Source: a virus | Taxonomy: Duplodnaviria; Heunggongvirae; Uroviricota; Caudoviricetes | IMG/VR virus record: IMGVR_UViG_2802429222_000004 | Length of the DNA: 32,084 nt | Strand: one strand, 5' to 3' | In this document: in pieces, positions 2,498 through 25,037 of the stretch | Layout: each line of letters opens with the position of its first letter | Numbering within the stretch: position 1 is the first letter of the stretch | Made by a program: the position numbers and the translations under genes | The notes under the pieces: generated by a model | Database searches by the model: none | Seen by the model: only the letters and a program-made list of their open reading frames with translations | Told to the model about the DNA's origin: nothing

Positions 2498-2561
2498 ATA
2501 ATTAACCAGAGTTTTTAACGCACTTAATCGTGCGGGGGCTTCTTTTTGCCTGGAGAAAGTC

Positions 2562-2786
2562 ATGCATACAGTTTCTGAAAATCAGTGCGATAAATACGCA
2601 TTACTGCTGAAACAGGCCAGAACAGAAGCACAGGCCGACGCTGCGACGCGCTTTTCTTCTCATCTTGACGCCATGATTCGCCACATCACAAAGGCGGAGT
2701 TATCCCGCGTGGAGATAGTCGAGCTGCTCAGTCAGGAGTCGGAAAAATTTCACAATATCGGATTGTCTCGCGGGGAGGTGCTTTGA
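2562..2786 (+). CDS. Early hypothetical protein (P2 orf80 position)
   Basis: 74-aa ORF in the early operon between B and A. Confidence 0.6.
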
Positions 2787-3085
2787 TGTCCTGTTCTCGT
2801 TCGGTTGTATTACTGAATAACGCCTTAAAAATAGCTGTTATGGAAAATGGTGATTTGTCTCTTATTCAACTTTGTCTTGATAAAGAAAAACGCGACATAA
2901 CTGAATCTGTTATCGCGATTTATCAGAATGAATTAAACCTCCTGTCTGATGTGGTCAATTTACTTGTTAAACGCGCTGTGTTCCACAAACAAATTTCCTC
3001 AGTGGATGAACTGACAAAATTAACGACAGAACTCGCCAGTTATTGCGCTGATGTATCCAGGAAACTTAACGATAAAAGGAGCTGA
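2783..3085 (+). CDS. Early hypothetical protein (P2 orf81 position)
   Basis: 100-aa ORF whose start overlaps the preceding stop (translational coupling). Confidence 0.6.
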
Positions 3086-3087
3086 TA

Positions 3088-3312
3088 ATGCCGGACAACG
3101 TAGATTTTATTCAGGAACAACAGGCTGAATTACTGGAGCGCCAGATTAACGCGGCAAGGGTAAAACATTGCTGTGCTTCTGCGCTGGTTTGCGAAGAGTG
3201 TGACACGCCAATACCTGCTGCCCGTCGTGCGGCTTACCCGTCAGCCACGCGTTGTGTTTCCTGCCAGTCAGTCTTTGAAGCAAAAAACAAGCATTACCGG
3301 AGAATGGCATGA
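3088..3312 (+). CDS. TraR/DksA-like C4 zinc-finger protein (P2 orf82 position)
   Basis: 74 aa with CxxC...CxxC (CEECDTPIPAARRAAYPSATRCVSCQ), typical of the TraR/DksA C4 zinc-finger family. Confidence 0.7.
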   Translation: MPDNVDFIQEQQAELLERQINAARVKHCCASALVCEECDTPIPAARRAAYPSATRCVSCQSVFEAKNKHYRRMA

Positions 3313-3584
3313 GTATTCGTATCGAAATTGGCGAACGTTATGTCGTTACCAGTGACAGCTTTCAGTTTATTCTCCACGAGAAAAAGAGAGCGGAAAGCGG
3401 TAAAAACGCCGGTCAGGAATGGCTGGCGGTGGTTGGTTATTATCCGAAATTAAGCCAGCTCGTTTCCGGCCTGATGCATCACGATATTCTGACCGGAAGC
3501 GCAAAGTCTTTTGCTGATTTAAACGCGCAGGTTGAGCAACTCAGCAGGCGTTGTTCAGAGGCTTTTGGCTCATATGGACGTTAA
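3309..3584 (+). CDS. Early hypothetical protein (P2 orf83 position)
   Basis: 91-aa ORF coupled to the flanking genes. Confidence 0.6.
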   Translation: MSIRIEIGERYVVTSDSFQFILHEKKRAESGKNAGQEWLAVVGYYPKLSQLVSGLMHHDILTGSAKSFADLNAQVEQLSRRCSEAFGSYGR

Positions 3585-5844
3585 AGCCTCCGGGCGTTTT
3601 GTCCCTCCGTCAGCATTTGCCGCAGGCACCGGTAAGGCGTTTACCGGTGCTTATGCATGGAACGCGCCACGCGAGGCTGTCGGGCGCGAAAGACCCCTTA
3701 CACGTGACGAGATGCGTCAGGTGCAAGGTGTTTTATCCACGATTAACCGCCTGCCTTACTTTTTGCGCTCGCTGTTTACTTCACGCTATGACTACATCCG
3801 GCGCAATAAAAGCCCGGTGCACGGGTTTTATTTCCTCACATCCACTTTTCAGCGTCGTTTATGGCCGCGCATTGAGCGTGTGAATCAGCGCCATGAAATG
3901 AACACCGACGCGTCGTTGCTGTTTCTGGCAGAGCGCGACCAGTATGCGCGCCTGCCGGGGATGAATGACAAGGAGCTGAAAAAGTTTGCTGCCCGTATCT
4001 CATCGCAGCTTTTCATGATGTATGAGGAACTCTGCGATGCCTGGGTTGATGCACATGGCGAAAAAGAATCACTGTTTACGGATGAGGCTCAGGATCACCT
4101 GTATGGTCATGTTGCTGGCGCTGCACGAGCTTTCAATATTTCCCCTCTCTACTGGAAAAAATACCGTAAAGGACAGATGACCACGAGGCAGGCATATTCT
4201 GCCATTGCCCGTCTGTTTAACGATGAGTGGTGGACTCATCAGCTTAAAGGCCAGCGTATGCGCTGGCATGAGGCGTTACTGATTGCTGTCGGGGAGGTCA
4301 ATAAAGACCGTTCTCCTTATGCCAGTAAACATGCCATTCGTGATGTGCGTGCGCGCCGCCAGGCAAATCTGGAGTTTCTTAAATCATGTGACCTTGAAAA
4401 CAGGGAAACCGGCGAGCGCATCGACCTTATCAGTAAGGTGATGGGCAGTATTTCTAATCCTGAAATTCGCCGGATGGAGCTGATGAACACCATTGCCGGT
4501 ATTGAGCGTTACGCCGTCGCAGAGGGTGATGTGGGGATGTTTATCACGCTGACCACGCCGTCAAAGTATCACCCGACACGTCAGGTCGGAAAAGGAGAAA
4601 GTAAAACCGTCCAGCTTAATCACGGCTGGAACGATGAGGCATTTAATCCGAAGGATGCGCAGCGTTATCTCTGCCGTATCTGGAGCCTGATGCGCACGGC
4701 ATTCAAGGATAATGATTTACAGGTCTACGGTTTGCGTGTCGTCGAGCCACACCACGACGGAACGCCGCACTGGCATATGATGCTTTTTTGTAATCCACGC
4801 CAGCGTAACCAGATTATCGAAATCATGCGTCGCTATGCGCTCAAAGAGGATGGTAACGAAAGAGGAGCCGCGCGAAACCGTTTTCAGGCAAAACACCTTA
4901 ACCGGGGCGGTGCTGCGGGATATATCGCAAAATACATCTCAAAAAATATCGACGGCTATGCACTGGATGGTCAGCTCGATAACGATACCGGCAGGCCGCT
5001 GAAAGACACTGCAGCGGCTGTTACCGCATGGGCGTCAACGTGGCGTATCCCGCAATTTAAAACGGTTGGCCTGCCGACAATGGGCGCTTACCGTGAACTA
5101 CGCAAATTGCCTCGCGGCGTCAGCATTGCTGATGAGTTTGACGAACGCGTCGAGGCTGCACGCGCCGCCGCAGACAGTGGTGATTTTGCGTTGTATATCA
5201 GCGCGCAGGGTGGGGCAAATGTTCCGCGCGATTGTCAGACTGTCAGGGTTGCCCGTAGTCCGTCGGATGAAGTTAACGAGTACGAGGAAGAAGTCGAGAG
5301 AGTGGTCGGCATTTACGCGCCGCATCTCGGCGCGCGTCATATTCATATCACCAGAACGACGGACTGGCGCATTGTTCCGAAAGTGCCGGTCGTTGAGCCT
5401 TTGACTTTAAAAAGCGGCATCGCCGCGCCTCGGAGTCCTGTCAATAACTGTGGAAAGCTTGCCGACGGTGGCGATCCAGTTATGACACCTACGCCGTCTG
5501 AGCATGCCGCAGCGGTGCTAAATCTTGTCGATGATGGGGTTATTGCATGGGATGACCCCGAAGTTGTGACGGTGCTCAGGAGTGCATTAAAACACGGCGC
5601 GCCGCAGCAAAATCGACAGCAAAGAAGCGATGAGCCATTAAAATCGAATCAGATAGCACCATCAGGGCGAATGACAAAAGCCGAGAGGGCTCAGATTCCG
5701 CGCATCCGCTTCGAACTGGCGCAGCAGGGTATCACGCCGCAGCGGTGGGAACTTCAGGCGCTGGCTCGTGGCGGAATAGTGGTTTATGGCGAAAAAAGAT
5801 TTGTATACCCGATAGCGGACGAGTGGGTGAAGCATGAAGGGTGA
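3574..5844 (+). CDS. A: Rolling-circle replication initiator endonuclease A
   Basis: Large ORF (track 3532..5844) at the position of P2 A. The ATG at 3574 (MDVKASGRF...) gives about 756 aa, close to P2 A (761 aa). The exact start is uncertain. Confidence 0.85.
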   Translation: MDVKASGRFVPPSAFAAGTGKAFTGAYAWNAPREAVGRERPLTRDEMRQVQGVLSTINRLPYFLRSLFTSRYDYIRRNKSPVHGFYFLTSTFQRRLWPRIERVNQRHEMNTDASLLFLAERDQYARLPGMNDKELKKFAARISSQLFMMYEELCDAWVDAHGEKESLFTDEAQDHLYGHVAGAARAFNISPLYWKKYRKGQMTTRQAYSAIARLFNDEWWTHQLKGQRMRWHEALLIAVGEVNKDRSPYASKHAIRDVRARRQANLEFLKSCDLENRETGERIDLISKVMGSISNPEIRRMELMNTIAGIERYAVAEGDVGMFITLTTPSKYHPTRQVGKGESKTVQLNHGWNDEAFNPKDAQRYLCRIWSLMRTAFKDNDLQVYGLRVVEPHHDGTPHWHMMLFCNPRQRNQIIEIMRRYALKEDGNERGAARNRFQAKHLNRGGAAGYIAKYISKNIDGYALDGQLDNDTGRPLKDTAAAVTAWASTWRIPQFKTVGLPTMGAYRELRKLPRGVSIADEFDERVEAARAAADSGDFALYISAQGGANVPRDCQTVRVARSPSDEVNEYEEEVERVVGIYAPHLGARHIHITRTTDWRIVPKVPVVEPLTLKSGIAAPRSPVNNCGKLADGGDPVMTPTPSEHAAAVLNLVDDGVIAWDDPEVVTVLRSALKHGAPQQNRQQRSDEPLKSNQIAPSGRMTKAERAQIPRIRFELAQQGITPQRWELQALARGGIVVYGEKRFVYPIADEWVKHEG

Positions 5845-6170
5845 TTTATATCCATCTAAATCATGATGTTATGATGGCCGTGTGAGTTCTTTTCTGATTG
5901 GGGCTGCGTTCGACGGCTTGAAATGTTGTAAATGCTCATAATCTGGTTTAAAGTGTTTTTATGCCAACGACTAGGAGCATCTCCAGTCATAAATGTTGGC
6001 CTCTACAGGCCTTTATATAGTGTTGCTCTTGTACTGCCTTCTCTTTCGAGAGAAGGTATGTACAAGAAGTAAAGCCTGCGAAGGGAGGGTGTCTGGGGTG
6101 AGGAAAGACTGAGAGTTAAAGCATTCATCTTAGAATCCATTCAACTCAAAAAACAAAAGCTCAGCCAACG
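5845..6170 (+). ncRNA. Putative retron msr-msd non-coding RNA region (boundaries not resolved)
   Basis: About 330 bp of non-coding DNA directly upstream of a retron-sized RT. It contains a 39-nt hairpin at 6028-6066 (stems CTTGTAC/GTACAAG and CCTTCTCT/AGAGAAGG, TTCG loop), a GGCC-TCTACA-GGCC hairpin at 5998-6011, and a -35-like TTGAAA at 5918-5923. Confidence 0.4.
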
Positions 6171-7160
6171 ATGAAACCCCTTAGTCTCGAAAAAGCCTTC
6201 AATATTGCATTCTTCGAAAAAGATTCCTTTCAAAACTTTCTTTCGTTTGAACCATTTCAACAAACTAAATTTATAACCTTTGATGAAAGGTTAATTGCTG
6301 AGCCCACTTCTAAACTAAAAGAGTATCACAAATTCATAAATGAATTTGTTCTTTCATACTTGAAAGTAAATAAGGATGTTGTGTTTTCGTATAGAAAAGG
6401 AAGCAGCACTTATGATGCAGTAAAACTTCACGCCTGTAGTAAGATATTCTTCAATACTGATATTAAAAGCTTTTTCCCATCGATAACTCGTGAATATGCA
6501 CGATCAGTTTTAGTTGATAACTTATCGAACGTTCCCATTTCCGATTTAAATATACACTTGGATAAAATTTTAGATTATATTATTATCGATAATTCGTTGC
6601 CTGTAGGGTTCCCGACATCACCAGCTTTCAGCAATGCATGTTTATATGACTTTGATGTTGAGATGCAGCAATATTGTATTAACCATGAATATATATTCAC
6701 ACGCTATTCAGATGATATTATTATTTCCTCTGAAAATGATGAGGGCTTTGAGAATATTCATTCTGTAGTAAGTGACCTGCTGGGTGAGTTTGGGAAGGGA
6801 CATTTCAAACTAAACTCAGCAAAAACTAAATTGATTAAAAAAGGCAGTAAGATTAAGCTGCTGGGGATGGTTATTTTACCGTCTCAGATAGTCTCTGTTG
6901 ATATTAAAATAAAAAGAAAGCTTGAGCATTTGATTCATTTTTATGTAACGGATAAAGATAAATTTATAGATTCTATAATAAAAGATCCTAAGGTTAAAAC
7001 TAGCGGATTGAATGATAGTGAGATCTTGGAAAAGGGCGTTAATACAGTTTCTGGTCTTTTGAATCATATAAACACAATTGATAAGAGTTATCTCGATAAG
7101 CTAAAGAGAAAATACGGAAATACGATTGTCGATATGCTTTTTTACAAGAATGTAAATTAA
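6171..7160 (+). CDS. Reverse transcriptase, retron-type size (329 aa)
   Basis: RT motifs read directly: TDIKSFFPSI (domain 1/2), LPVGFPTSPAFSNACL (domain 4), and catalytic YSDD within IFTRYSDDIIIS (nt 6705-6716). Low GC compared with the flanking phage genes. Confidence 0.8.
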   Translation: MKPLSLEKAFNIAFFEKDSFQNFLSFEPFQQTKFITFDERLIAEPTSKLKEYHKFINEFVLSYLKVNKDVVFSYRKGSSTYDAVKLHACSKIFFNTDIKSFFPSITREYARSVLVDNLSNVPISDLNIHLDKILDYIIIDNSLPVGFPTSPAFSNACLYDFDVEMQQYCINHEYIFTRYSDDIIISSENDEGFENIHSVVSDLLGEFGKGHFKLNSAKTKLIKKGSKIKLLGMVILPSQIVSVDIKIKRKLEHLIHFYVTDKDKFIDSIIKDPKVKTSGLNDSEILEKGVNTVSGLLNHINTIDKSYLDKLKRKYGNTIVDMLFYKNVN

Positions 7161-7161
7161 A

Positions 7162-8514
7162 ATGAAAATAAACATTGAGATCTCGAAAATCCAGCATGTT
7201 GAACATATGTCATTTGCTATTGATCTTTCTGAAAATAAACTGACTTGCATTGTAGGAAAGAACGGTGCTGGAAAGACAACGCTAATCAAAGCAATTAAAA
7301 ATTTACAATCAGCAGATACATTCATAAAGACATCTTCTAGATATATATTCAATCCTGACAGTAGTATAGTATATAATATTAATGATCAAGATATAGTATA
7401 TGTCTATGATGAGAATTTGAAGGTAATAGATACTAAGCAAATAATTCCAGCAGATATAAAATCCAATCTTTATGTCGAGTTGCCCATTCCTCATGGAATG
7501 AGGTTCAATAACTTCCCAACACTTAGTAAAATTGATACTGAACTTAGAAAAAGTATTGCGTTTGAAAGCTATAGCGTTCCCGAGGATTTGATAAATATAC
7601 TCAATGAGGTATATCAGTCTTCTTCTTACAATAATCTTAAAGCATTTTCTGTAAAAAATGAAATTTTCTATTTCAGATTGAATGAGAACGGAACATACAT
7701 AAGGGAGGATTACTTTAGCTCGGGTGAGTATTTTATTTTGAATTTATTTAGAATGATTGAGCTCAAAAGAAAATTCATTGTCATAGATGAGATAGATATA
7801 TCACTAGACTCTTCGGCGCAAGTCCATCTTATAGCAGTGCTAAGGAAATATTGTCAGAGACACTCGGTGAATATTGTATTCACAACACATTCACTTGCTT
7901 TAATGCAAACGCTGAATGATGATGAATTGTACTATATGTGCGAAGGTGATGCTGGAACTACAATTACAAATCGATCATATAATTATATAAAAAGTACGCT
8001 TTTTGGATTTAAAGGATGGGATAAGTACATTCTTACTGAAGATGAAGTTCTGCAAAATTTCTTAGAATATATAATTAATGCTCCTGGGAGTGATTACTTC
8101 TACGAATATAAAATAATATATGTTGGTGGAGGAACTAATGTCATTGATTTAATGCGTCGTAATGAGAGAGAGAGCTTTCTCACGACTCAACAGAATGTGA
8201 TCTCAGTGTTAGACGGAGATCAATTAGGTCAAAGGCATGCTCGAGGTGAAAATATTTTATGCATACCTTTCCAAAGCGTTGAGAAGGATTTCTATCAAGC
8301 ATACGGCCAAGATGAATCGATCCCGAGAGTTACAACTAGAGGTAACGATAAACTTGATAAGCAAGTTTATCGAGGGGTAGTGAAAACCTATGACAACGGT
8401 TGGGATGAAACTAGGATTTTTGAATACCTTGAGAGGTTAAAGCCTGATGAATGTGAGGCTTTCAGGCAAAAAATTAGAGCATTTCTCCAAAGAAATATTT
8501 CGGCAGAGGGTTGA
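7162..8514 (+). CDS. OLD-family ABC ATPase with C-terminal TOPRIM-like domain (450 aa)
   Basis: Walker A GKNGAGKTT (nt 7255-7281), signature-like FSSGEY, Walker B FIVIDEID, H-loop TTHSLA. The C-terminal half has TOPRIM-like motifs YILTEDE, VGGGTN and VLDGDQ. The start is 2 nt after the RT stop, so the two are one operon. Confidence 0.75.
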   Translation: MKINIEISKIQHVEHMSFAIDLSENKLTCIVGKNGAGKTTLIKAIKNLQSADTFIKTSSRYIFNPDSSIVYNINDQDIVYVYDENLKVIDTKQIIPADIKSNLYVELPIPHGMRFNNFPTLSKIDTELRKSIAFESYSVPEDLINILNEVYQSSSYNNLKAFSVKNEIFYFRLNENGTYIREDYFSSGEYFILNLFRMIELKRKFIVIDEIDISLDSSAQVHLIAVLRKYCQRHSVNIVFTTHSLALMQTLNDDELYYMCEGDAGTTITNRSYNYIKSTLFGFKGWDKYILTEDEVLQNFLEYIINAPGSDYFYEYKIIYVGGGTNVIDLMRRNERESFLTTQQNVISVLDGDQLGQRHARGENILCIPFQSVEKDFYQAYGQDESIPRVTTRGNDKLDKQVYRGVVKTYDNGWDETRIFEYLERLKPDECEAFRQKIRAFLQRNISAEG

Positions 8515-8656
8515 ATATAAGCTTCGGGATCTCATGCCTCTCTATCTGCATGAAATTGCATTTGATAATTCCTATTTTTCTCGTGAACTGTGTCACGTTA
8601 GGCGCAGCTCAGGGCTCATAATGCATCTGCATTAAAACCGCCCCACGAAGCGGGCG

Positions 8657-8675
8657 GGCGAGGCGGGGAAAGCAC
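8657..8675. other. cos site (19-nt cohesive end GGCGAGGCGGGGAAAGCAC)
   Basis: Matches the P2 cohesive-end sequence as I recall it, and lies about 170 bp from the end of Q, as in P2. Confidence 0.6.
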
Positions 8676-8814
8676 TGCGCGCTGGCGGTGGTGCGGATTT
8701 TATTTTTTCAGCGTCTGAGCGCGTCGTGACGGCGTTTAGATTGTGCGCCGGGGCATTGGTGTGTCTGCGGGGTGTTTTGTGCGGTGGTGAGCGTGTGAGG
8801 TCGTGATGACGGGA

Positions 8815-8839
8815 TATAAAAAAGCCGCCCGCAGGCGGC
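8815..8839 (-). terminator. Rho-independent terminator after Q
   Basis: On the minus strand: GCCGCC-TGCG-GGCGGC hairpin followed by TTTTTT, immediately downstream of the Q stop. Confidence 0.7.
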
Positions 8840-8844
8840 GATGT

Positions 8845-9879
8845 TCAGCCGTTGTCAGTGTCCAGTGAGTAGTTTTTAAAGCGGATGACCTCCTGACCGA
8901 GCCAGCCGTTTATCTCGCGGATCCTGTCCTGTAACGGGATAAGCTCATTGCGGACAAAGACCTTTGCCACTTTCTCAATATCGCCCAGTGACCCGACGTT
9001 CTCCGGCTTGCCCCCCATCAACTGAAAGGGGATGCGGTGCGCGTCCAGCAGGTCAGCGGCGCTGACTTTTTTGATATTAAAAAAATCGTCCTTCGTTGCC
9101 ACTTCACTGAGCGGGATAATTTTAATGCCGTCGGCTTTTCCCTGTGGGGCGTAGAGAAACAGGTTTTTAAAGTTGTTGCGGCCTTTCGACTTAACCATGT
9201 TTTCGCGAAGCATTTCGATATCATTGCGATCCTGCACGGCATCGGTGACGTACATGATGTATCCGGCATGTGCGCCATTTTCGTAATACTTGCGGCGGAA
9301 CAGCGTGGCCGACTCATTCAGCCAGGCAGAGTTAAGGGCGCTGAGATATTCCGGCAGGCCGTACAGCTCCTGATTAATATCCGGCTCCAGCAGGTGAAAC
9401 ACGGAGCCGGTCGCGAAGGCTGTCGGCTCGTTGAAGGACGGCACCCACCAGTAAACATCCTCCTCCACGCCACGGCGGGTATATTTTGCCGGTGAGGTTT
9501 CCAGTCTGATGACCTTACCGGTGGTGCTGTAACGCTTTTCCAGAAACGCATTGCCGAACACCAGAAAATCCAGCACAAAGCGGCTGAAATCCTGCTGGGA
9601 AAGCCACGGGTGCGGGATAAACGTTGAAGCCAGAATATTGCGTTTAACGTAAATCGGCGAGCTGTGATGCACGGCAGCACGCAGGCTTTTTGCCAGACCG
9701 GTAAAGCTGACCGGCGGTTCATACCATCTGCCGTTACTGATGCACTCGACGTAATCCAGAATGTCACGGCGGTCGAGTACCGGCACCGGCTCACCAAAGG
9801 TGAATGCCTCCATTTTCGGGGCGCTGGCGGTCATTTTTTTTGCCGCAGGTTGCGGTGTTTTCCCTTTTTTCTTGCTCAT
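8845..9879 (-). CDS. Q: Portal protein Q (344 aa)
   Basis: 344 aa, the same length as P2 Q. Leftward, adjacent to cos, overlapping the terminase gene by 1 nt. Confidence 0.9.
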   Translation of the reverse strand: MSKKKGKTPQPAAKKMTASAPKMEAFTFGEPVPVLDRRDILDYVECISNGRWYEPPVSFTGLAKSLRAAVHHSSPIYVKRNILASTFIPHPWLSQQDFSRFVLDFLVFGNAFLEKRYSTTGKVIRLETSPAKYTRRGVEEDVYWWVPSFNEPTAFATGSVFHLLEPDINQELYGLPEYLSALNSAWLNESATLFRRKYYENGAHAGYIMYVTDAVQDRNDIEMLRENMVKSKGRNNFKNLFLYAPQGKADGIKIIPLSEVATKDDFFNIKKVSAADLLDAHRIPFQLMGGKPENVGSLGDIEKVAKVFVRNELIPLQDRIREINGWLGQEVIRFKNYSLDTDNG

Positions 9880-23136: not shown

Positions 23137-23714
23137 TGGCTTTCAGAATGAGTGCAGAAGCACAAACTATCCGCGTTTTCAATTTACTTAATGGAACCAA
23201 TGAGTTTATTGGCGAAAGTGATGCATATATTCCGCCGTATACTGGCCTGCCTGCAAACAGTACAGATATTGCACCGCCTGATATTCCTGCTGGTTATGCA
23301 GCCGTTTTCAATGCAGATGAAATGAAATGGGAACTGATGGAAGACCATCGCGGAAAGACCGTCTACGAAACGAAAACAGGAGCAGCCATTTATATTTCTG
23401 AACTTGGCGTATTACCTCCAGACGTGACAGCTATTTCCCCGGAGGGGGATTATCAGAAATGGGACGGAAATGCGTGGGTGAATGATGAGAATGCAGAACG
23501 TGATGCGCTTGTCAGAGCGGCGGAGTCTCAGAAGAAAGAGCAGATTGCATATGCAGGTGAAATTATTGCCACGCTGCAGGATGCTGTCGATTTAGATATG
23601 GCTACCGAGGAAGAAAAGTTAAGCCTGACACACTGGAAAAAATACCGTGTGCTACTGAATCGCGTTCAGCCGGAAAATGCCCCGGATATTGAATGGCCGG
23701 AACTACCGCAATAA
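23136..23714 (+). CDS. G: Tail fibre assembly chaperone G (192 aa)
   Basis: Start overlaps the H stop, at the position of P2 G. Confidence 0.8.
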
Positions 23715-23719
23715 ACACA

Positions 23720-23746
23720 GGCGGGCTGATTGCCCGCCTTTTCTTT
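23720..23746 (+). terminator. Rho-independent terminator after G
   Basis: GGCGGGC-TGATT-GCCCGCC hairpin followed by TTTTCTTT. Confidence 0.7.
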
Positions 23747-23846
23747 ACCGGTGGTTGTGCTGTTGATTAGCCAACCGGGACAAATAGCCTGACATCTCCG
23801 GCACAACTGAAAATACCACTCACCCATTAACCACGGAGTTAAACGG

Positions 23847-25037
23847 ATGAGTGACTATCATCACGGCGTGCAGGTGCTGGAGATTAACGACGGCACCCGC
23901 GTCATTTCCACCGTATCCACGGCCATTGTCGGCATGGTCTGTACGGCCAGCGATGCGGATGTCGAAACCTTCCCCCTCAATAAACCGGTACTGATTACCA
24001 ATGTGCAGAGCGCAATTGCAAAGGCCGGTAAAAAAGGCACGCTGGCGGCATCGTTGCAGGCCATCTCCGACCAGTCAAAACCGGTCACCGTTGTCGTACG
24101 TGTGGAAGACGGCACCGGCGACGACGAGGAAACGAAACTCGCGCAGACCGTTTCCAATATCATCGGCACCACTGACGAAAACGGTCAGTACACCGGACTG
24201 AAAGCCCTGCTGGCGGCGGAGTCGGTAACCGGTGTTAAACCGCGTATTCTTGGTGTGCCGGGGCTGGATACCAAAGAGGTGGCTGTTGCACTGGCATCAG
24301 TCTGTCAGAAGCTGCGCGCTTTCGGATATATCAGCGCATGGGGCTGTAAGACCATTTCCGAGGTGAAAGCCTATCGCCAGAATTTCAGTCAGCGTGAGCT
24401 GATGGTCATCTGGCCGGATTTCCTCGCATGGGATACGGTCACCAGTACCACCGCCACCGCGTATGCCACCGCCCGTGCACTGGGCCTGCGCGCTAAAATC
24501 GACCAGGAGCAGGGCTGGCATAAAACGCTGTCCAATGTCGGGGTGAACGGTGTTACCGGCATCAGCGCATCTGTATTCTGGGATTTGCAGGAGTCCGGCA
24601 CCGATGCTGACCTGCTTAACGAGTCAGGCGTCACTACGCTGATTCGCCGTGACGGTTTCCGCTTCTGGGGTAACCGTACCTGCTCTGATGACCCGCTGTT
24701 CCTCTTTGAAAACTACACCCGCACCGCGCAGGTGTTGGCCGACACGATGGCTGAGGCGCACATGTGGGCGGTGGACAAACCCATCACCGCAACGCTGATT
24801 CGCGACATCGTTGACGGCATCAATGCCAAATTCCGTGAGCTGAAAACAAACGGCTATATCGTGGATGCGACCTGCTGGTTCAGCGAAGAATCCAACGATG
24901 CGGAAACCCTCAAGGCCGGAAAACTGTATATCGACTACGACTATACCCCGGTGCCTCCTCTTGAAAACCTGACCCTGCGCCAGCGTATTACTGATAAATA
25001 CCTGGCAAATCTGGTCACCTCGGTTAACAGCAATTAA
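23847..25037 (+). CDS. FI: Contractile tail sheath protein FI (396 aa)
   Basis: 396 aa, matching P2 FI. Confidence 0.9.
   Translation: MSDYHHGVQVLEINDGTRVISTVSTAIVGMVCTASDADVETFPLNKPVLITNVQSAIAKAGKKGTLAASLQAISDQSKPVTVVVRVEDGTGDDEETKLAQTVSNIIGTTDENGQYTGLKALLAAESVTGVKPRILGVPGLDTKEVAVALASVCQKLRAFGYISAWGCKTISEVKAYRQNFSQRELMVIWPDFLAWDTVTSTTATAYATARALGLRAKIDQEQGWHKTLSNVGVNGVTGISASVFWDLQESGTDADLLNESGVTTLIRRDGFRFWGNRTCSDDPLFLFENYTRTAQVLADTMAEAHMWAVDKPITATLIRDIVDGINAKFRELKTNGYIVDATCWFSEESNDAETLKAGKLYIDYDYTPVPPLENLTLRQRITDKYLANLVTSVNSN

Follow-up and report, generated by a model that had tools for sequence, protein, structure and literature searches.

Which gene stands beside cos in a P2-like prophage, in the slot where phage P2 itself carries old, and how did it get there? 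This question is raised by a stretch of DNA of 32,084 nucleotides (nt) from a virus of the Caudoviricetes (IMG/VR record IMGVR_UViG_2802429222_000004), the whole of which is called hereafter the window. Positions 7162–8514 of its plus strand hold an open reading frame (ORF) with an ATG start that encodes a protein of 450 amino acids (aa), exactly as described in an original prediction made from the letters alone. That prediction saw in the gene an OLD-like effector, shorter than P2 Old and divergent from it, coupled to a reverse transcriptase (RT), which replaces old at the same position and suggests a modular exchange in which OLD-type effectors pass between stand-alone settings and RT-associated ones. 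Our analysis leads to another history. The gene likely encodes a Class 3B OLD protein that serves a type I-B1 retron as its effector, and a whole foreign cassette, of which the gene is one part, occupies the hotspot between gpA and cos.

The ORF is not a chance frame, since 1173 database proteins match its product, 47 residues are invariant in the family and 10 complete E. coli genomes have this gene in their RefSeq annotation. The protein matched the PADLOC model ATPase-Toprim_I-B with an E-value of 2e-179, over residues 1–443 of a 443-position model. Upstream of it, at 6171–7160 on the plus strand, lies the gene for a retron-type RT of 329 aa, whose residues 3–328 matched the 316-position PADLOC model RT_I-B (6.5e-110), the next best models being those of other retron RT types. 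The RT also contains the Pfam domain RVT_1 (8.2e-19). Its nearest NCBIfam family was that of the St85 retron (3.2e-52, below the family cutoff), and its best matches in the Protein Data Bank (PDB) were all retron RTs (Ec78, Ec83 and one unnamed, 1e-16 to 3e-22), the RT of Eco8 being a much weaker match in that search (4e-8, versus 1e-19 to 3e-22 for RTs like those of Ec78 and St85). The catalytic motif, Y179-S-D-D182, is conserved and reads YSDD, not YADD, across 77 family members. An Abi-P2 or DRT-type RT was considered and ruled out, as retron RT models scored far higher.

In the definition of type I-B1, a clade-1 RT goes together with an ABC ATPase-TOPRIM protein whose motif IV reads EDxxL and whose motif V reads DxD; a structured RNA family, ‘IB1’, is given for it, and no described retron is listed (Mestre et al. 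2020, NAR, PMC7736814). The same study places Eco8 in type I-B2, with EGxxE. In the summary of Dot et al. (2023) given in PMC10568477, type I-B1 is equated with Class 3B of the OLD proteins, in which the RT gene comes first and the OLD gene after it. The window protein contains ILTEDEVL (motif IV, EDxxL) and LDGDQ (motif V, DxD), and these two motifs, together with the position of the effector downstream of the RT, make the fit to the published subtype exact. The order of the RT and ATPase-TOPRIM genes, the motifs and the presence of an upstream structured RNA are those of type I-B1/Class 3B, and we found no difference at the level of classification; what marks the window copy is its place in the gpA-cos hotspot of an E. 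coli P2-like prophage. All three notions have been published before, the I-B1 subtype, the Class 3B OLD proteins and the occurrence of retrons in the P2 hotspot, the last together with many other systems in the gpA-cos interval (Rousset 2022). Since subtype, OLD class and hotspot retrons are on record, and curated hidden Markov models match over the full length, the element belongs to a known kind and is correctly recognised as such.

The association with the RT is close and general. In the window, the stop codon of the RT (TAA) is followed by one A and then by the ATG of the effector. With this 1-nt gap and no obvious ribosome-binding site (no Shine-Dalgarno sequence is evident), the two genes are probably translationally coupled. 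The linkage was inspected in 80 related loci from 80 species-level genomes of Proteobacteria, comprising Enterobacterales, Pseudomonas, Burkholderiales, Xanthomonadales, methanotrophs, Vibrionales and others. In 79 of 79, the effector directly follows the end of an RT homologue, the 80th locus being truncated. The coupling to an RT that had been predicted is supported. In a Kluyvera copy (L002, 366–6731) the cassette again lies between homologues of gpA and of the portal gene, and in a Paraburkholderia copy (L065, 7829–8773) a portal homologue (55% identity) is found about 2.5 kb downstream; I-B1 retrons may recur in the P2-like hotspots of distant hosts. Most other related loci have no P2 genes within 4 kb. 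Because the RT is linked in all 79 loci, mostly outside a P2 context, the effector lineage would have been RT-linked before it entered P2. Taken together, these comparisons of sequence and gene order indicate that a whole cassette was replaced in a known defence hotspot, and that the incoming lineage already carried its RT.

The edges of the replacement are defined by homology to P2. By its sequence the whole window is P2-like prophage: positions 2540–5826 match P2 27000–30286 (through gene A) at 93.7% identity, the homology stops at 5826, and it is back at 8628, where 8628–8675 match P2 33546–33593, the cosR end. The last 19 nt of this segment, GGCGAGGCGGGGAAAGCAC at 8657–8675 on the plus strand, are the cohesive end of P2 cos; the P2 record ends in the same 19 nt and annotates them as cosR. 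The effector stop codon lies 143 nt from cos. Between the two edges (5827–8627) the GC content is 0.31–0.35, versus 0.53–0.58 in the flanks. In P2, the interval from A to cos contains orf91, tin and old, of which old is the closest to cosR, and tin and old are on the minus strand. The slot is therefore the one in which P2 has old, as had been predicted. It is not old alone that was replaced at this position: the entire orf91-tin-old block has been swapped, for genes on the opposite strand. The cassette was found in 10 of 5426 complete E. coli genomes, among which the cos-side flank matches 2154, and it was absent from all sequenced phage records searched. In E. coli LR-45, RefSeq gives the order as replication endonuclease, ‘reverse transcriptase family protein’, ‘AAA family ATPase’ and portal.

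The left edge deserves a remark of its own. P2 homology ends 18 nt ahead of the gpA stop codon (5826–5844), and for this reason the final few residues of gpA appear to be encoded by the left edge of the cassette, or by its junction.

The 325 nt between gpA and the RT gene contain non-coding elements that are conserved even among loci with 35–50% protein identity. A candidate sigma-70 promoter lies on the plus strand at 5926–5954, with TTGTAA (5926–5931) and TAAAGT (5949–5954) separated by a 17-nt spacer. In 75 loci the spacing of its conserved TTG and TAnnnT columns from the RNA core is constant, and in other lineages the promoter takes the form TTGCnn-17/18-TGnTAnnnT. From its position, transcription is predicted to start at about 5961. 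The 5' domain of the RNA follows at once (5963–6000, plus strand): a helix, P1, pairs 5963–5968 with 5995–6000 around a hairpin, hp1, which is a near-invariant 20-nt element of sequence GACUAGGAG-CAU-CUCCAGUC (5969–5988). In an alignment of 61 loci, 92.3% of the cells of P1 and hp1 were paired, and eight of the 14 pairs had changed on both sides. This covariation score was reached by none of 500 shuffles, and control pairings slid along the alignment were only 21–47% paired. P1 is followed by a single-stranded linker, CUCUAC (6001–6006, plus strand), whose columns are at least 70–90% conserved in the 61 loci, and then by a long msd-like hairpin, SL3 (6023–6072, plus strand), recognised by its fold and by repeats I3/I4, with 22 bp and a free energy of −27 kcal/mol. 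All 58 loci inspected have such a hairpin (median 55 nt, 22 bp, −28 kcal/mol). Its sequence varies between lineages, and the base of its stem (UUAC/UUGC...GUAA) is conserved.

The two domains of the effector were delimited from an alignment of 99 homologues, 47–93% identical. The N-terminal part has Walker A as G32-KNGAGK-T39 (7255–7278, plus strand), followed at 7717–7893 on the same strand by the ABC signature S186-S-G-E189, Walker B F205-IVIDE210, the D-loop S214-L-D216 and the H-loop H243. Invariant among the homologues are G37, K38, T39 and T40 of Walker A, and S187, G188, E189, D209, E210, D212, S214, L215, D216 and H243. In residues 1–270, Pfam found AAA_21 (3.4e-16), AAA_15 (7.7e-12) and ABC_tran (9.5e-8), and only ABC or AAA families. 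On this sequence evidence, the assignment as an ABC ATPase is solid.

The TOPRIM core is placed at residues 285–390 or thereabouts (8014–8331, plus strand). Strand beta1 leads to E293-D294, the start of EDxxL; G321–G323 follow beta2, D351-G-D353 follow beta3, and S372-V-E374-K375 open the helix next after the beta3 segment. In the C-terminal half, E293, D294, G323, R333, N334, D351, D353, P369, S372, E374, K375 and K400 are invariant or nearly so, K375 and K400 being the two lysines among them; E293, D351 and D353 are strictly invariant, and G323 is conserved in at least 90% of the homologues. AlphaFold modelled the full-length effector with a predicted local distance difference test score (pLDDT) of 87.4, and residues 268–450 alone with a pLDDT of 87.6 and a predicted template modelling score of 0.83; E293, G323, D351 and D353 stand at strand ends in the predicted structure. 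A Foldseek search of the PDB with the full model gave the OLD protein of T. scotoductus as the best match (2.1e-13), then PtuA of a type I-A retron and GajA. The distance from the Glu to DxD is 58 residues, versus 55 in both P2 Old and the OLD protein of B. pseudomallei, and S372-x-E374, at the start of helix 373–383, parallels the metal-B ligands T506-x-E508 of the latter. Finally, the profile of the I-B1 family was aligned with one built from 57 P2 Old family sequences; the alignment was colinear through both domains (residues 3–441 versus 6–565, E 4e-6, probability 87%, identity 17%) and set E293 against E398, GGG against DGKG, and D351-D353 against D453-D455. The models support a fold of the TOPRIM type; its Glu, Gly, DxD and S-x-E are conserved, and the first three are in register with P2 Old. 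The OLD architecture that had been predicted, an ABC ATPase joined to TOPRIM, was recovered by motif conservation, by the predicted fold and by the structural match of the full model.

Several observations weigh against the identification as a type I-B1 retron, and they fall on the RT and its RNA on the one hand, and on the C-terminal half of the effector on the other. Retron RTs are described with NAxxH and VTG signatures (Mestre et al. 2020, PMC7736814). Across the 77 family members the RT has instead SNACL[Y/L] (about residues 153–158) and KLLGMVI (about 229–235). The canonical retron RNA runs in the order a1, branching G, msr, msd, a2, and the RNA found here does not fit this layout, as its start is predicted at P1 and its msd-like hairpin lies outside P1. 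P1 is the only closing helix; it encloses just 26 nt or so and ends in an invariant G. This G is preceded by a C.U mismatch and faces another G in 36 of the 61 loci; in the window it faces U5994. No outer a1/a2 pairing rose above shuffled controls, and no G could be assigned as the branching one. When the sequence preceding the core was compared with the 45 nt that follow the hairpin, the longest complementary runs were 7.7, versus 8.1 in shuffles, and an anchored pairing heat map of 52 loci peaked at only 14%. Within a closely related subgroup, conservation stops right after the long hairpin, with nothing conserved 3' of SL3. A permissive Rfam search of positions 5500–9000 returned no family, and tests of msDNA (multicopy single-stranded DNA) or of defence by I-B1 retrons, or structures of them, were not found in the literature searched.

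Two sets of candidate pairings were tried and rejected. A long-range pairing of 5888–5905 with 6090–6110, proposed by an inverted-repeat finder and by the minimum free energy fold, was unconserved in close relatives, and the pairings CAGGC/GCCUG and UUUUAU/GUAAAG were either unconserved or upstream of the predicted transcription start. Some 35 nt past SL3, GACTGAGAG at 6108–6116 resembles the 5' half of hp1, GACTAGGAG. The likeness is probably due to chance, since the closest relatives have CACTAAGAG instead.

A locus whose RNA cannot be fitted to the a1-G-msr-msd-a2 order, whose RT has altered signature motifs, which matches no Rfam family and whose subtype has no experimental msDNA reported in the literature searched might be no true msDNA retron at all, but an RT-dependent defence system that uses its RNA differently, for instance with a short product made inside P1 or with priming from a group other than a 2'-OH. 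We consider this unlikely. The RT scores far better with retron RT models than with those of DRT or group II RTs, msd usually shows itself as a long, stable and variable hairpin just before the RT, and a structured RNA family is reported for this very subtype (Mestre et al. 2020). A further proposal retains the I-B1 retron and changes its chemistry: its RNA would be non-canonical, with priming or templating altered relative to all characterised retrons, and its EDxxL TOPRIM domain might cut tRNA, not DNA. We put this forward tentatively, as rather improbable. It is possible, under this proposal, that a conserved DNA of about 25 nt is copied from the hp1 hairpin, or that copying starts at the UUAC/GUAA base of SL3. 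The suggestion of a tRNA target comes from the cutting of tRNA that is reported for P2 OLD, PARIS and Eco7.

On the side of the effector, the points against concern TOPRIM. No Pfam family matched residues 268–450 (183 aa) at E ≤ 10, and PDB searches with phmmer and hmmsearch, started from the protein as well as from profiles of the family and of its C-terminal part, returned ABC or P-loop proteins only, with no TOPRIM. When the C-terminal model was submitted alone to Foldseek, nothing in the PDB matched below 1e-3; the matches of highest probability, which were not significant, were GajA, the B. pseudomallei OLD protein and AriB. An hhalign comparison of the C-terminal halves alone of the I-B1 and P2 Old families kept the same register, at E 0.0096 and a probability of only 4%. 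At position +4 of motif IV, EDxxL has a Leu where the EGxxE of OLD proteins has the metal-B Glu, and for this reason the full two-metal nuclease chemistry is not assured; D294 is conserved at +1.

These points could be read as the mark of a degenerate or non-catalytic TOPRIM-like domain of Rossmann-like type, next to an ATPase that binds, oligomerises or recruits a host factor. With the acidic residues conserved as described, and placed in the fold where TOPRIM has them, we hold such a reading to be quite improbable. As modelled, the C-terminal domain is a divergent TOPRIM variant, for which we infer nuclease catalysis. TOPRIM had first been held less certain than the ATPase. The ATPase motifs are invariant, and TOPRIM escapes detection by sequence and is supported by its fold and by conserved residues in register. 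Of the checks proposed at the same time, structure prediction gave the fold, and the profile alignment set the acidic residues against those of P2 Old; neither a missing fold nor misaligned acids, which had been named as grounds for giving the domain up, was found.

How, then, is the effector related to the gene that P2 has in this slot? P2 Old, a Class 1 protein and the founding member of the OLD family, has the same succession of ABC ATPase and TOPRIM, is encoded in the same slot adjoining cos, and provides a prophage-borne abortive infection function. According to a 2026 preprint, it is a tetrameric tRNase that is opened by single-stranded DNA hairpins, which it senses. Its gene, however, stands alone, is co-transcribed with tin and lies on the strand opposite to that of the window effector. 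It is also longer (586 versus 450 aa). The window effector has about 87 residues fewer between Walker A and the signature, where OLD proteins have their dimerisation insert, and some 35 fewer in the C-terminal region, and its motif IV is EDxxL where that of P2 Old is EGxxE. BLASTP aligned the two proteins in the P-loop region only (residues 28–89, E 0.004), which agrees with the predicted divergence, and when the profile of the window protein's family was compared by hhalign with P2 Old as a single sequence, only the Walker B region aligned (probability 55%). The Pfam domain OLD-like_TOPRIM (PF20469) is present in P2 Old (1.2e-17) and in all full-length P2 Old homologues among the 120 matches listed for it; it occurs in none of the homologues of the window protein among the 120 matches listed. 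By sequence, P2 Old matches the OLD protein of T. scotoductus (1e-10) and GajA (2e-9) through Walker B and TOPRIM, whereas the window protein has no such match to either through TOPRIM.

The notion that OLD effectors are exchanged as modules between stand-alone and RT-linked settings, which would make this gene a remodelled or exchanged relative of P2 old, can appeal to the shared architecture and slot, to the colinear profile alignment with its conserved catalytic residues, and to the several P2 and P4 hotspot systems built on this architecture (old and PARIS), but it is very improbable in view of a BLASTP similarity confined to the Walker A region, the 17% profile identity, the distribution of PF20469, the sequence matches through TOPRIM that P2 Old alone has to T. 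scotoductus OLD and GajA, the opposite strand, an island that is of low GC throughout and has its own promoter, RNA and RT, and an RT that accompanies the effector in all 79 loci, the majority of which have no P2 context. The claim of modular exchange is not supported, given a whole low-GC cassette that brings RT and RNA with it, the missing PF20469 and the constant RT linkage. Given the profile identity of about 17%, the opposite strand and the RT upstream in all 79 loci, the window effector is not, as far as sequences tell, derived from P2 old, and the two are related at the level of the family only. An orthologue of P2 Old (Class 1) was likewise ruled out, the similarity being limited to the P-loop or Walker B and the gene always RT-linked.

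Reading the locus as a type I-B1 retron with a Class 3B OLD effector also sets it apart from three other systems. Retron-Eco8 (type I-B2, Class 3A OLD) is likewise a retron with an OLD-type ATPase-TOPRIM effector. In the summary accounts of that system, the effector gene precedes that of the RT and motif IV reads EGxxE, whereas in the window the effector is downstream and has EDxxL. No Eco8 effector chain appeared among the PDB sequence matches listed or among the top Foldseek matches. An Eco8-like retron (type I-B2, with a clade-3 RT) was ruled out from the downstream effector, EDxxL and the weak match of the Eco8 RT (4e-8). Type I-A retrons (Ec78/Eco7, Ec83) have RTs related to that of the window, among its best PDB matches, and their ATPase PtuA is related to the window ATPase (PADLOC models at 1e-10 to 1e-14, Foldseek about 3e-11). 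Their nuclease, however, is a separate HNH protein, PtuB, whereas the window effector has TOPRIM fused to the ATPase. A type I-A (Septu-like) system was ruled out, as there is no HNH gene before cos and the ATPase_I-A model matched at only 2e-10. PARIS, found in P4 and P2 hotspots, divides its functions between two genes, the ATPase AriA and the TOPRIM protein AriB, and has no RT or RNA component; its trigger is Ocr and its substrate tRNA.

On either side of the cassette the prophage follows P2. The left flank is a gpA homologue (3532–5844), and beyond cos come portal and terminase genes on the minus strand, the portal gene at 8845–9879. The last part of the effector gene is overlapped by a 62-aa ORF (8447–8635), which heads toward cos, has no annotation in the RefSeq copies and is probably spurious. 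Besides this frame, no ORF of at least 60 aa lies between 8514 and cos. At a distance from the locus, a gap of about 130 nt (23714–23847) separates a putative tail-fibre assembly gene from the sheath gene, both named from ORF order only. P2 has Z/fun at the equivalent position, and as the gap is so short, this second cargo site appears to be empty.

A working scheme can be drawn from the characterised retrons. The cassette would have been inserted as a single foreign unit, in the order promoter, structured non-coding RNA, RT and ABC ATPase-TOPRIM effector. In Eco8, an autoinhibited 4:4:4 complex of RT, msDNA and OLD protein is activated when the single-stranded DNA-binding protein of the phage engages the msDNA, and DNA is degraded. 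In Eco7 (type I-A), msDNA scaffolds PtuA-PtuB, and the RT-msDNA sequesters the ATPase-nuclease effector. On the model of Eco8, Eco7 and Eco1, the RT would copy part of the RNA into msDNA. The resulting RT-msDNA complex would, as in the characterised retrons, bind the effector and keep it inactive until a cue derived from an infecting phage perturbs the complex. The released TOPRIM nuclease, under regulation by its ATPase, could then cut nucleic acid and abort the infection, which would protect the lysogen population and, with it, the prophage. Eco8 would suggest DNA as the substrate, and P2 OLD, PARIS and Eco7 would suggest tRNA. An ATP-regulated TOPRIM nuclease, restrained by RT-msDNA and freed upon infection, is by this analogy the most likely identity of the I-B1 effector.

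The locus offers a clean natural example of how the gpA-cos hotspot of P2 swaps complete defence cassettes: an RT-guarded ATPase-TOPRIM system sits where P2 has the archetypal stand-alone Old. The cassette, of about 2.7 kb (5900–8520), would represent, in an E. coli prophage, a retron subtype without an experimental model, and its remaining interest lies in that subtype and in its atypical, conserved RNA.

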